Made by a program: the position numbers and the translations under genes. The notes below the pieces were generated by a model. It was not told the DNA's origin, made no database searches, and worked only from the letters and a program-made list of their open reading frames with translations. Shown piece by piece: positions 5,470 through 60,869 of a stretch of 64,000 bases of DNA; position 1 is the first letter of the stretch, and each line of letters begins with the position of its first letter. The stretch is from Escherichia coli (GTDB taxonomy: Bacteria; Pseudomonadota; Gammaproteobacteria; Enterobacterales; Enterobacteriaceae), in NCBI RefSeq assembly GCF_044647545.1, contig NZ_CP172818.1; one strand, written 5' to 3'.

Positions 5470-5610
5470 AAATTAGCTTCCTGTTATTAATAGAGTTAAT
5501 GCTTCTCATTTTCATTGTAACCACAAACAGATGCAACCCCGAGTTGCAGATTGCGTTACCTCAAGAGTTGACATAGTGCGCGTTTGCTTTTAGGTTAGCG
5601 ACCGAAAATA

Positions 5611-10666: not shown

Positions 10667-12772
10667 ATGAACAAATCAGGGAAATACCTCGTCTGGACAG
10701 TGCTCTCTGTAATGGGAGCATTTGCTCTGGGATACATTGCTTTAAATCGTGGGGAACAGATCAACGCGCTGTGGATTGTGGTGGCGTCGGTCTGTATCTA
10801 TCTGATCGCTTACCGTTTTTATGGGTTGTATATCGCCAAAAATGTGCTGGCGGTTGACCCGACGCGTATGACGCCAGCGGTGCGCCATAACGACGGGCTG
10901 GACTATGTGCCGACGGACAAGAAAGTGCTGTTCGGTCACCATTTTGCGGCCATTGCCGGAGCTGGCCCGCTGGTGGGGCCGGTACTGGCGGCGCAAATGG
11001 GTTACCTGCCAGGGATGATCTGGCTGCTCGCCGGGGTGGTTCTCGCCGGTGCGGTGCAGGATTTCATGGTGCTGTTTGTTTCTACGCGCCGTGACGGTCG
11101 CTCGCTGGGTGAGCTGGTCAAAGAAGAGATGGGGCCAACCGCCGGGGTGATAGCGCTGGTGGCCTGCTTTATGATCATGGTCATTATCCTTGCCGTGCTG
11201 GCGATGATCGTGGTGAAAGCCCTGACTCATAGCCCGTGGGGAACGTATACCGTTGCGTTCACCATTCCGCTGGCGCTGTTTATGGGGATCTACCTGCGCT
11301 ATTTGCGTCCGGGGCGTATTGGCGAAGTGTCGGTGATTGGTCTGGTGTTCCTGATTTTCGCCATTATCTCTGGCGGCTGGGTGGCAGAAAGCCCGACCTG
11401 GGCACCGTACTTTGACTTTACCGGCGTGCAGCTGACCTGGATGCTGGTGGGCTACGGTTTTGTGGCGGCGGTGCTGCCGGTGTGGTTGCTGCTGGCCCCG
11501 CGCGACTACCTCTCAACCTTCCTGAAAATCGGGACTATCGTCGGTCTGGCGGTAGGCATTCTGATTATGCGCCCGACGCTGACCATGCCTGCGCTAACTA
11601 AATTTGTCGATGGCACTGGCCCGGTATGGACCGGTAACCTGTTCCCGTTCCTGTTTATCACCATCGCCTGTGGCGCGGTGTCTGGCTTCCATGCACTGAT
11701 CTCTTCCGGCACTACACCGAAGATGCTGGCGAACGAAGGGCAGGCGTGCTTTATCGGCTACGGTGGGATGTTGATGGAATCCTTCGTGGCGATTATGGCG
11801 CTGGTTTCCGCCTGTATCATCGATCCGGGTGTGTACTTCGCCATGAACAGCCCGATGGCGGTGCTGGCTCCGGCAGGGACGGCGGATGTGGTTGCTTCTG
11901 CCGCGCAGGTGGTGAGTAGCTGGGGCTTTGCGATTACCCCGGATACGCTAAACCAGATTGCCAGCGAAGTGGGTGAACAGTCGATCATTTCCCGTGCGGG
12001 CGGTGCGCCGACCCTGGCGGTGGGGATGGCCTACATTCTGCACGGTGCGCTGGGCGGCATGATGGATGTGGCGTTCTGGTATCACTTCGCCATTCTGTTT
12101 GAAGCACTGTTTATTCTGACGGCGGTGGATGCAGGTACGCGTGCTGCGCGCTTTATGTTGCAGGATCTGCTGGGCGTGGTGTCTCCGGGCCTGAAACGGA
12201 CCGATTCACTGCCTGCTAACCTGCTGGCAACGGCGCTGTGCGTACTGGCGTGGGGCTACTTCCTCCATCAGGGCGTGGTCGATCCGCTGGGCGGTATTAA
12301 CACTCTGTGGCCGCTGTTTGGTATTGCCAACCAGATGCTGGCAGGGATGGCGCTGATGCTCTGTGCTGTGGTGCTGTTCAAAATGAAACGTCAACGTTAC
12401 GCCTGGGTGGCGCTGGTACCAACGGCCTGGCTGCTGATTTGTACCCTGACCGCAGGCTGGCAGAAAGCGTTTAGCCTGGATGCAAAAGTCGGCTTCCTGG
12501 CGATTGCTAACAAGTTCCAGGCAATGATCGACAGCGGCAATATTCCGTCGCAGTATACCGAGTCACAGCTGGCGCAACTGGTGTTCAACAACCGTCTGGA
12601 TGCCGGGTTAACCATCTTCTTTATGGTGGTCGTGGTGGTTCTGGCACTGTTCTCGATTAAGACGGCACTGGCGGCATTGAAAGAGCCGAAGCCAACGGCG
12701 AAAGAAACGCCGTATGAGCCGATGCCGGAAAATGTCGAGGAGATCGTGGCGCAGGCAAAAGGCGCGCACTAA
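10667..12772 (+). CDS. cstA: Carbon starvation protein A (peptide/pyruvate transporter family)
   Basis: 701 aa polytopic membrane protein. Confidence 0.95.
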   Translation: MNKSGKYLVWTVLSVMGAFALGYIALNRGEQINALWIVVASVCIYLIAYRFYGLYIAKNVLAVDPTRMTPAVRHNDGLDYVPTDKKVLFGHHFAAIAGAGPLVGPVLAAQMGYLPGMIWLLAGVVLAGAVQDFMVLFVSTRRDGRSLGELVKEEMGPTAGVIALVACFMIMVIILAVLAMIVVKALTHSPWGTYTVAFTIPLALFMGIYLRYLRPGRIGEVSVIGLVFLIFAIISGGWVAESPTWAPYFDFTGVQLTWMLVGYGFVAAVLPVWLLLAPRDYLSTFLKIGTIVGLAVGILIMRPTLTMPALTKFVDGTGPVWTGNLFPFLFITIACGAVSGFHALISSGTTPKMLANEGQACFIGYGGMLMESFVAIMALVSACIIDPGVYFAMNSPMAVLAPAGTADVVASAAQVVSSWGFAITPDTLNQIASEVGEQSIISRAGGAPTLAVGMAYILHGALGGMMDVAFWYHFAILFEALFILTAVDAGTRAARFMLQDLLGVVSPGLKRTDSLPANLLATALCVLAWGYFLHQGVVDPLGGINTLWPLFGIANQMLAGMALMLCAVVLFKMKRQRYAWVALVPTAWLLICTLTAGWQKAFSLDAKVGFLAIANKFQAMIDSGNIPSQYTESQLAQLVFNNRLDAGLTIFFMVVVVVLALFSIKTALAALKEPKPTAKETPYEPMPENVEEIVAQAKGAH

Positions 12773-12778
12773 AGTCAG

Positions 12779-12870
12779 AGTGAGGGGGGATGTTGGCGAA
12801 TGTTGGCATGGTGCCGAGGGTTCCCCCTCACCCTAACCCTCTCTCCTGTGGGGCGAGGGGACTGACCGAG
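12779..12870. repeat. GC-rich imperfect palindromic intergenic repeat element between cstA and ybdD
   Basis: tgagggggga (12781-12790) pairs with ttccccctca (12821-12830), followed by ccctaaccctctctcctgtggggcgagggga; resembles E. coli intergenic palindromic repeat families, family not assigned. Confidence 0.5.
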
Positions 12871-12915
12871 CGCGTTGATAGCACCCTCTCAGCAACCTGT
12901 TTACCGGAGGTTTAG

Positions 12916-13113
12916 ATGTTTGATTCACTGGCAAAAGCCGGAAAATATTTAGGTCAGGCGGCGAAACTGATGATTGGTATGCCTGATTACGACAACTATG
13001 TCGAACATATGCGGGTTAACCATCCCGATCAAACGCCGATGACCTACGAAGAGTTTTTCCGTGAGCGGCAGGACGCGCGCTACGGTGGAAAAGGCGGCGC
13101 GCGCTGCTGCTAA
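12916..13113 (+). CDS. ybdD: Small protein co-located with cstA (DUF466 family)
   Basis: 65 aa; SD-like ggagg 7 nt upstream of ATG; conserved partner downstream of cstA-type transporters. Confidence 0.85.
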
Positions 13114-13122
13114 ATCTGTACG

Positions 13123-59421: not shown

Positions 59422-60869
59422 AAACATGTTGGCAAATCCTCGAAATTGAAAGCACGACGCAAATAGACATTATCCGCCAGGCTTATCTTGTTCGCTTACC
59501 GTTGTGTCATCCCGAAACCGATCCGCAGGGGTTTAAAGCATTACGCCAGGCCTATGAAGAGGCGCTGCGACTGGCGGTAAATCCTGTCGAGGAGGCAGAT
59601 GATGAAGAAAAAGATGCCGCCGCTGAACATGAAATACTACGTGCATTCAGGGCATTACTGGATTCTGAAAGTGATCGTTTTCAGCCCTCCGCCTGGCAGA
59701 AATTTATTCAGCAATTAAATACCTGGAACATGGAGGATGTCGATCAATTACGCTGGCCGCTGTGTGCAGTCGCTATAGAAGCGCGATATCTTTCATTAAA
59801 TTGTGCTTCTTTGCTGGCAGAGCGTTTGAACTGGCATTCGTTTAATGACAGCGAAGGAATGGATGAGGAAGAAAGGGAGGCTTTTCTTGAGGCCATTCAG
59901 GCTGGTGATTGTTTCGATTTCCTTAGCCTTCTGGAATATCCCGTCGCGTTGCAGAACCAGACTGTTGAGTATTACTTCGCGCTGGAACGCTGCTGCCGTT
60001 ACCATCCTGACTATGTCACTGCGTTTATGGCAATGGAAGGTCCGTGGTTCATTCCTGATGATGTCAAGTTACATCGCAAACTGTTGCGCTGGTACAGCTC
60101 GGTGAAAACAGGTATGGCGGAACTTATTCCTGTTGCCCAACAGTGGCAAGCAGAAAATCCAGAAAGCGAAGATGCCCGTTATTACCAGTGTGCGCAACGG
60201 TTGTACTGTGGCGAGGGGGAAAGCCTGCTTGCCGATCTCTGCGCATACCGGGAGAGTTACCCATCTACACAAGCTGATAATTTGTTGTTGCAGTGGAGCA
60301 AGCGTCATTGCCCGGATTATTTCGCGTTATTAGTGATGGTTATCGAAGCGCGAAGCATGATAGATGCGCAAGGTCAACCGTTGAAATATGTTCCTGGTGA
60401 GAGCGCCCGGACGCGGCTGTTATGGGCGGAAATTTTACATAGCGGAAAATTATCGCCGTTAGGTCAATCGTTTATTGAGTCGTTATTCTTCAAGCGCAAA
60501 GCATGGGCATGGTGGAAATCGAGAGTCGGTAGCGAGACAGAACAAGATTCACCGTTACTGGATTTGTATCGGGTAGCGGAACAGGTTGTGCTGGAAGCGT
60601 TCCCGAAACAAGAGATGCTGGCCCGTCTTAATACAAGGCTGGAAGGTGGAGATGCTCATCCATTAGAGGCCATTATCACGCGGATGCTGTTGACGAAAGT
60701 GAAACTCGAGCCGGAGGATGAAGATGTCGATGAGCCAACACCTGAAAACCACGAAGAAAAAAATGATGAGGATGAAAAACCACAGAGCATTACCAGCATT
60801 ATCAAAATCAGCTTAACGGTGCTGGTGATAGGTTATGCTCTCGGAAAAATCGCGATGTTGTTTAGCTGA
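59418..60869 (+). CDS. djlC: J-domain-like co-chaperone of HscC with C-terminal membrane anchor
   Basis: 483 aa; N-terminal J-like region with HPETDP; acidic linker; C-terminal TM tail [17 protein letters not shown]. Confidence 0.92.

Follow-up and report, generated by a model that had tools for sequence, protein, structure and literature searches.

Background

REP/BIME elements stabilise the 3' ends of mRNAs, as for example in malE-malF. For the BoxC/TMECO elements, a second class of intergenic palindromes, we know of no function that has been assigned in 30 years.

This second family was named BoxC in the 1990s (Bachellier), and Hoyne and Maher (2000, 2002) came upon it again as the PIT element. 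It was renamed TMECO by Holder et al. 2015 (PMC4666352), with the strict motif CCCTCNCCC N3-6 GGGNGAGGG N3 GGGNGAGGG, and was found again by Kaplan et al. 2016 (PMC5100583) in the form of the HPG1/HPG2 putative G-quadruplex motifs. According to the summary of Hoyne and Maher's work given by Holder et al. (PMC4666352), PIT elements have neither terminator nor promoter activity and no effect on RNA polymerase. The K-12 copy that concerns us here is HPGQ 19 in Table 1 of Kaplan et al. (PMC5100583), located 51 nt after cstA on the minus strand, with its midpoint at 632058 and 108 nt to ybdD.

Constitutive pyruvate uptake requires the products of both genes on either side of this copy, CstA and YbdD. 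A sequence-only reading of the DNA studied here had expected cstA and ybdD to be co-transcribed; RegulonDB, as cited by Kaplan et al. 2016 (PMC5100583), gives them instead as separate one-gene units. The same reading pointed to a palindromic repeat between the two genes, and we report here what this repeat is, how it varies and what it might do.

Results

The cstA-ybdD spacer

The window (the whole stretch of E. coli DNA that was analysed, 64,000 nucleotides of contig NZ_CP172818.1) is 100% identical over the region to strain FDAARGOS_497 and has the gene order entA-entH-cstA, a 143-nt spacer, ybdD and then the convergent gene hcxA. Using the list of open reading frames and the RefSeq annotation of the identical genome, we placed cstA, which encodes a pyruvate/proton symporter, at 10667..12772 (+) and ybdD, which encodes a small protein of the YbdD/YjiX family (WP_000460431.1), at 12916..13113 (+), leaving the spacer at 12773-12915. 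The ribosome-binding site of ybdD, GGAGG at 12906..12910 (+), lies 5 nt before the ATG and outside the repeat, and its GGAG is kept in all alleles. A 41-codon open reading frame that spans much of the spacer (12790-12915) was considered as a small protein gene and rejected, the corresponding frame having 3, 18, 32 or 50 codons, or being absent, in other alleles. Downstream, the stop codons of ybdD and hcxA are separated by 9 nt (13114-13122) without a terminator, so that each transcript must run antisense into the other gene. In the curated K-12 MG1655 record, the interval NC_000913.3 632000-632181 carries zero annotated features, despite the presence of a TMECO copy and a REP element.

The description of a roughly 90-bp GC-rich element with nested imperfect inverted repeats proved accurate: the composite element is 93 nt long (12774..12866, +) and has two inverted repeats, the first pairing 12774-12788 with 12823-12837 (15 nt, 87% complementary) and the second pairing 12824-12833 with 12851-12860 (10 nt, 90% complementary). 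RNA folding, which had been suggested as a check, agreed with the stable RNA structure that had been proposed. In the cstA sense, 12774-12866 is predicted to form two hairpins, an outer and an inner one, closed by GUCAG/CUGAC (GTCAG at 12774-12778 with CTGAC at 12862-12866), with an MFE of -49.0 kcal/mol and z = -3.41 against dinucleotide shuffles, 1 of 200 shuffles folding as well. The antisense strand gave -39.2 kcal/mol (z = -2.99). The full 149-nt stretch named in the earlier reading is unexceptional (z = -1.07), and the folding signal therefore sits in the 93-nt element.

Within this element, the left arm GTGAGGGGGGAT (12780..12791, +) pairs with 12820-12831. The loop of the outer hairpin contains a 10-nt tandem repeat, ATGTTGGCGA, in 1.8 copies (12790..12807, +, from two alignments), and the inner hairpin of the sense RNA, at 12837..12859 (+), reads CCCUC.CUCC UGU GGGG.GAGGG from the fold and the sequence. 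At position 12844, a C-to-T substitution still allows pairing (G-U) in the sense RNA but leaves A mismatched with C in the antisense RNA.

Family identity of the element

When the window was scanned with the strict TMECO pattern (Holder et al. 2015), zero matches were obtained, and a single match, at 12825-12859 on the minus strand, was obtained with 1 substitution. This match is a type-A TMECO/BoxC core, CCCTCGCCC CACAG GAGAGAGGG TTA GGGTGAGGG (12825..12859, -), in which the substituted position is the T at 12844, where the family has C. The core 19-mer occurs a single time in the window, with 0 occurrences expected by chance. Alignment with 10 K-12 copies from 7 loci showed that the family flanks, GTTCCCC... 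and GGGGACnGnnCGnGC, are present together with the type-A TTA loop, the right flank of the window copy reading GACTGACCGAGCGC (12860..12873, +). The orthologous alleles of O157, Lstone01, CH4793 and VG38 match the strict pattern; the K-12 allele fails it, in the third block. In the left half of the spacer, GTGAGGGGGG and the ATGTTGGC...GGTGCCGAGGGTT after it have homologues in the type-B partner of the K-12 inverted pairs at fepB-entC and ygfF-gcvP, namely its last G block and inner spacer. Taken with the first inverted repeat and the fold, this homology identifies the left arm at 12780..12791 as the last G block left from a truncated type-B partner.

Used as a query against 5,426 complete E. 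coli genomes, the 143-nt spacer matched 35,830 places in 4,824 of them (35,819 chromosomal and 11 on plasmids), with a median of 9 places per genome; what the query detects is therefore a dispersed repeat. In a search of Rfam 15 at a permissive threshold, no family reached its gathering score, the best hits being to unrelated families (19.9 bits against a gathering score of 40).

From its sequence, the cstA-ybdD element is thus almost certainly a copy by descent of the BoxC/PIT/TMECO/HPG1 dispersed intergenic repeat, slightly decayed, and the window copy is best described as a mutated member of the family and not a canonical one. It consists of a complete type-A unit on the minus strand and what remains of an inverted partner, namely the inner spacer and the last G block, the other two blocks having been lost; such a truncated inverted A/B pair accounts for the nested inverted repeats. 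The sequence-only reading had missed this known family, to which the K-12 locus had already been assigned in print. With both the family and the K-12 copy in the literature, the locus is an ordinary one.

Terminator, promoter and G-quadruplex signals

A scan of 12773-12915 with promoter and terminator consensus sequences found no terminator-like or promoter-like site. The two hairpins are followed by CCUAAC and by CGAGCGCG, with no U tract after either of them, and an intrinsic (Rho-independent) terminator was ruled out on the ground that no U tract directly follows a GC-rich stem-loop. A G-quadruplex was likewise rejected for the window allele, which has no (G3+N1-7)x4 motif on either strand; the motif is present in the K-12 and O157 alleles and has been lost in the window through the substitution at 12844.

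RNA 3' ends at TMECO copies in K-12

The Term-seq data of Adams et al. 2021 (PMC7815308) place a K-12 3' end at 632098(+) (LB, OD 2.0, 1,686 reads). Mapped onto the sequence, this end lies 4 nt past the closing CUGAC, and its counterpart in the window is position 12870, in the right family flank; this end is weak, was seen under one of the three conditions and comes from an allele other than the window's, one with an additional REP element. The filter used by Adams et al. (PMC7815308) retained it in their '5' UTR' table, and under that rule a transcription start would lie no more than 200 nt upstream. According to the same tables, 3' ends also lie 4-10 nt after the TMECO hairpins of hrpB-mrcB (164636+), the fepB leader (624567-), lldD (3781065+) and ppiC (3959467-). 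Given 3,110 ends genome-wide and 46 twelve-nucleotide windows (23 copies x two strands), chance alone would give about 0.2 coincidences, rising to about 1.5 on the assumption that all ends are intergenic. The end at 3781065+ is the primary lldD end; it has an intrinsic-terminator score of 1.3 (cut-off 3) and lies within a Rho region (PMC7815308), which fits trimming back to a stable stem rather than intrinsic termination.

Beyond the spacer, a K-12 Rho termination region is reported at 632836(+), inside hcxA in antisense (PMC7815308), and sense transcription thus continues past ybdD. On the other strand, a Rho region is called, coarsely, at 631994(-), 9 nt beyond the element and 5 nt into the 3' end of cstA (PMC7815308); the repeat may also bound the hcxA 3' UTR. 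The TERMITe supplementary files have no entry at the cstA-ybdD locus.

Spacer alleles among Escherichia

We aligned the spacer alleles of nine E. coli and four other Escherichia. The stop-proximal arm AGTCAGAGTGAGGGG and the complementary right arm are kept in all aligned alleles. Copies of the ATGTTGGCGA tandem repeat number 1.8 in the window and K-12, 2.8 in STLIN_13 and 0.8 in CH4793, VG38 and KKa019; the unit behaves as a small variable-number repeat, with slippage as the probable cause. After GTTGATA, the K-12 and O157 types carry a 38-nt REP element; in the window, alignments place the corresponding empty site at 12880..12883, the REP of K-12-type alleles being bordered there by a GC dinucleotide. 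A REP/BIME identity was rejected for the window element, the REP consensus (GCCGGATAAGGCG...CGCCGCATCCGGC) being precisely absent between 12880 and 12883; it is found in the K-12, O157 and CH4793 alleles and in other Escherichia.

The TMECO core itself is missing in B2 strains, strain KKa019, E. albertii, E. whittamii and two further lineages. Among the 5,426 complete E. coli genomes, at least 3,699 have TMECO with REP (K-12 type), about 400 have TMECO without REP (window type) and 1,187 lack the core (B2 type). The word "inserted", used for the element in the earlier reading, is reasonable, as the core is absent with its flanks kept in four other Escherichia lineages and in those 1,187 genomes; in the B2 allele, a non-TMECO right arm stands together with the TMECO right flank CCGAGCGTGTTGATAGC. 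The YbdD protein has the same accession, WP_000460431.1, in all nine alleles examined. YbdD is unchanged where the core is mutated, as in K-12 and the window, and where it is absent, as in 1,187 genomes, and the exact structure is therefore dispensable. Absence from other strains, which the sequence-only reading had named, together with uniform read-through and unchanged ybdD expression, as evidence against a role, was observed in part: the element is altered or missing in many strains with an identical YbdD and present in the several thousand others counted above.

Each allele was folded separately, as the C and G runs vary in length and shift the pairing register in a column-wise covariation count. 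The outer hairpin is retained in all 13 Escherichia alleles, and in 12 of the 13 the sense strand folds better than the antisense strand (B2, for example, gives -42.5 against -26.9 kcal/mol). Roughly four C-to-T changes were found in the C-rich arms and one G-to-A change in the G-rich arm, a difference that is not significant. With few events and related alleles, this asymmetry between sense and antisense is a strand hint only.

Two observations on neighbouring structures may be recorded here. The B2 spacer (positions 401-512 of the E. coli O6 locus) has a second hairpin, TTAAGCCCTCT...AGGAGGGCATTTG, just before ybdD, which resembles the single hairpin TTAAGCCCTCTCC...GGAGAGGGCGTTTG of Citrobacter and Salmonella arizonae spacers. 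This B2 hairpin may represent the original stem-loop, which other E. coli would have lost or exchanged for REP. Further upstream, at 5496-5497 in the fepB-entC interval, the window is without a 186-nt block (about 624497-624682 in K-12) that carries, in K-12, an inverted pair of TMECO units within the leader of fepB. In K-12 this block has strong Term-seq 3' ends on both sides, at 624680(-) with up to 243,213 reads and at 624567(-) with 50,301 reads; the structure of the fepB leader therefore differs between strains.

The paralogous pair and other Enterobacteriaceae

Comparison with the paralogous transporter/small-protein pair, another check proposed by the sequence-only reading, agreed with its interpretation. 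In K-12, the btsT-yjiX spacer is 49 nt long and contains GCCCCGC-TTCG-GCGGGGC followed by TTTGTTCTT, a canonical terminator hairpin, with a strong primary 3' end at 4589097(-) (59,788 reads) in the U-rich tail.

Taking one genome per species with YbdD, we collected 77 cstA-ybdD pairs in Enterobacteriaceae. Their spacers measure 14 to 195 nt, and 74 of the 77 fold at -15 kcal/mol or better (median z = -3.5, for cstA-ybdD spacers only), with stem sequences that are unrelated across the family. Simple CCCTCTCC...GGAGAGGG hairpins occur in Citrobacter, Salmonella arizonae and Kosakonia, REP-like palindromes in Enterobacter and Kluyvera, terminator-like hairpins with T runs in Atlantibacter, Buttiauxella, Kosakonia and one Citrobacter freundii, and TMECO pairs in other arrangements in Enterobacter asburiae, Enterobacter hormaechei, Lelliottia, Leclercia, Phytobacter, Pluralibacter and Pseudocitrobacter. 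Either selection keeps a stem-loop at this site, or palindromes are readily tolerated when they land there.

At eight of these loci, the TMECO pairs have their third blocks outward, opposite to the E. coli pairs, which suggests independent colonisation of one site, perhaps by targeting of an existing CCCTCTCC/GGAGAGGG hairpin. Enterobacterial ybdD sequences were also encountered in assemblies labelled Streptomyces (sp. DH24, a 465-nt contig, 98% identical) and Bacillota (a MAG, 89% identical), and most likely represent contamination or mis-binned contigs.

Discussion

The most likely reading of the element, one in which our confidence is evenly balanced, is that it acts as an RNA stem-loop that, in the manner of REP, marks or protects the 3' end of a cstA-only RNA. 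On transcription of cstA, the 93 nt of the element would fold in the sense RNA into a double hairpin (about -49 kcal/mol) that lacks a U tract. This structure would not be a classical terminator; it would mark or protect a 3' end lying a few nucleotides beyond the closing helix, giving a cstA-only RNA species, and in the simplest mode it would be a barrier to 3'-to-5' exonucleases, as in REP elements, or a pause or weak stop for RNA polymerase. The supply of ybdD RNA would come from read-through transcripts ended by Rho further downstream, or from a separate start site, with translation from the gene's own GGAGG site. By extension, the element might alter the CstA:YbdD ratio and might have selective value. 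One point runs counter to the exonuclease barrier: in K-12, an exonuclease coming from downstream meets the REP before the TMECO copy. The end at 632098 thus needs either a cut between REP and TMECO or an event at the level of the polymerase.

A broader version, which we put forward only tentatively, would have BoxC/TMECO elements generally define or stabilise RNA 3' ends when they are transcribed, the cstA-ybdD and btsT-yjiX spacers being selected to keep a stem-loop of any sequence family. It is compatible with what was found, since five K-12 TMECO copies have ends 4-10 nt past the hairpin, 74 of 77 spacers fold and substitutions in Escherichia tend to keep sense pairing.

The main rival is a neutral or selfish repeat, that is, a decaying BoxC/TMECO copy that landed in, or was converted into, a palindrome-tolerant spacer, the 3' end being a by-product of a stable hairpin without consequence for cstA or ybdD. 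We regard this as a real but rather unlikely alternative. Presence and decay of the element vary by strain with YbdD identical, the window is without the TMECO pair present in K-12 fepB-entC, and REP and TMECO are differently arranged in the same spacer across genera, the pattern that a permissive landing site would give. For the genes flanking these elements, Holder et al. 2015 (PMC4666352) reported no common function, and they saw more local variability around the elements; the lack of terminator and promoter activity in PIT, as summarised there, points the same way. A neutral origin does not, however, account readily for a strong stem-loop in the spacers of 74 of 77 species and in 13 of 13 Escherichia alleles, even without the TMECO core, nor for the functional-looking terminator at the same place in the paralogous pair.

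The two remaining readings are less likely. The main idea of the sequence-only reading was that the structure controls ybdD relative to cstA by attenuating or stabilising the transcript, and this stands in part. As a transcriptional attenuator, the hairpin or a non-B DNA/RNA structure would stop or pause RNA polymerase and only a fraction of cstA transcripts would reach ybdD. The K-12 end 4 nt past the foot of the structure is consistent with this, as is the occurrence at the same site of true terminator-like hairpins with T runs in the paralog, Atlantibacter, Buttiauxella, Kosakonia and one Citrobacter freundii, and for copies inside operons a role as terminators was suggested by Kaplan et al. 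2016 (PMC5100583). Against it, the U tract is absent, the scan found no terminator-like site, PIT is summarised as being without terminator activity, the equivalent lldD end scores below the intrinsic-terminator cut-off in a Rho region, and sense transcription continues to the Rho region beyond ybdD, all of which makes attenuation improbable. Least probable by our estimate, and very unlikely, is that the element acts solely at the DNA level, its G-rich minus strand folding into an intrastrand triplex or G-quadruplex with effects on replication, recombination or local mutation. In favour of this, stable triplexes of TMECO oligonucleotides have been obtained in vitro and unusual variability has been noted at TMECO loci (PMC4666352), HPG1 oligonucleotides alternate between a hairpin and a quadruplex (Kaplan et al. 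2016, PMC5100583) and the spacer is a patchwork of indels (tandem-repeat copy number, REP gain or loss, core loss). Against it, neither strand of the window allele has a (G3+N1-7)x4 motif and the allele does not match the strict triplex pattern, DMS probing in vivo gave no support for a stable triplex (PMC4666352), and the RNA 3' ends at hairpin feet would be left unexplained.

In itself the finding matters little, the family having been described since the 1990s and the locus listed for K-12. Its modest value is that of a test case, the natural spacer alleles forming a series of discrete steps (TMECO plus REP, TMECO without REP, a hairpin only, and spacers of 14-20 nt in some genera). Their comparison could show whether BoxC/TMECO acts at the RNA level, beyond the earlier promoter and terminator reporter tests.

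Comparison with known systems

The element shares with the BoxC/PIT/TMECO/HPG1 family the three-block core with the type-A TTA second loop and the same conserved flanks, and like the family it is intergenic, multi-copy and chromosomal. It differs from canonical BoxC/TMECO by the one substitution in the middle block, through which the window copy fails both the strict TMECO pattern and the G4 rule. Members of the family often occur as inverted A/B pairs; unlike these, the window copy has a partner unit cut down to its last G block and a 10-nt tandem duplication in the inner spacer.

The cstA-ybdD spacer resembles that of btsT(yjiY)-yjiX in having a stem-loop between a gene for a CstA-family transporter and that of its YbdD/YjiX-family partner, with an RNA 3' end just after it. 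In the 49-nt btsT-yjiX spacer, a 7-bp GC stem with a TTCG loop runs into a U-rich tail and the end there is strong, at 59,788 reads, whereas cstA-ybdD has a 93-nt repeat without a U tract and a weak end of 1,686 reads in K-12.

Like REP/BIME, the element is a GC-rich intergenic palindrome in or at the end of a transcription unit, has no U tract, is polymorphic between strains and has RNA 3' ends at the foot of its hairpin. Unlike REP/BIME, it has an unrelated sequence, and the window spacer is without a REP, which K-12-type alleles have 17 nt further downstream. The stabilising effect is established for REP and is proposed for TMECO by analogy.
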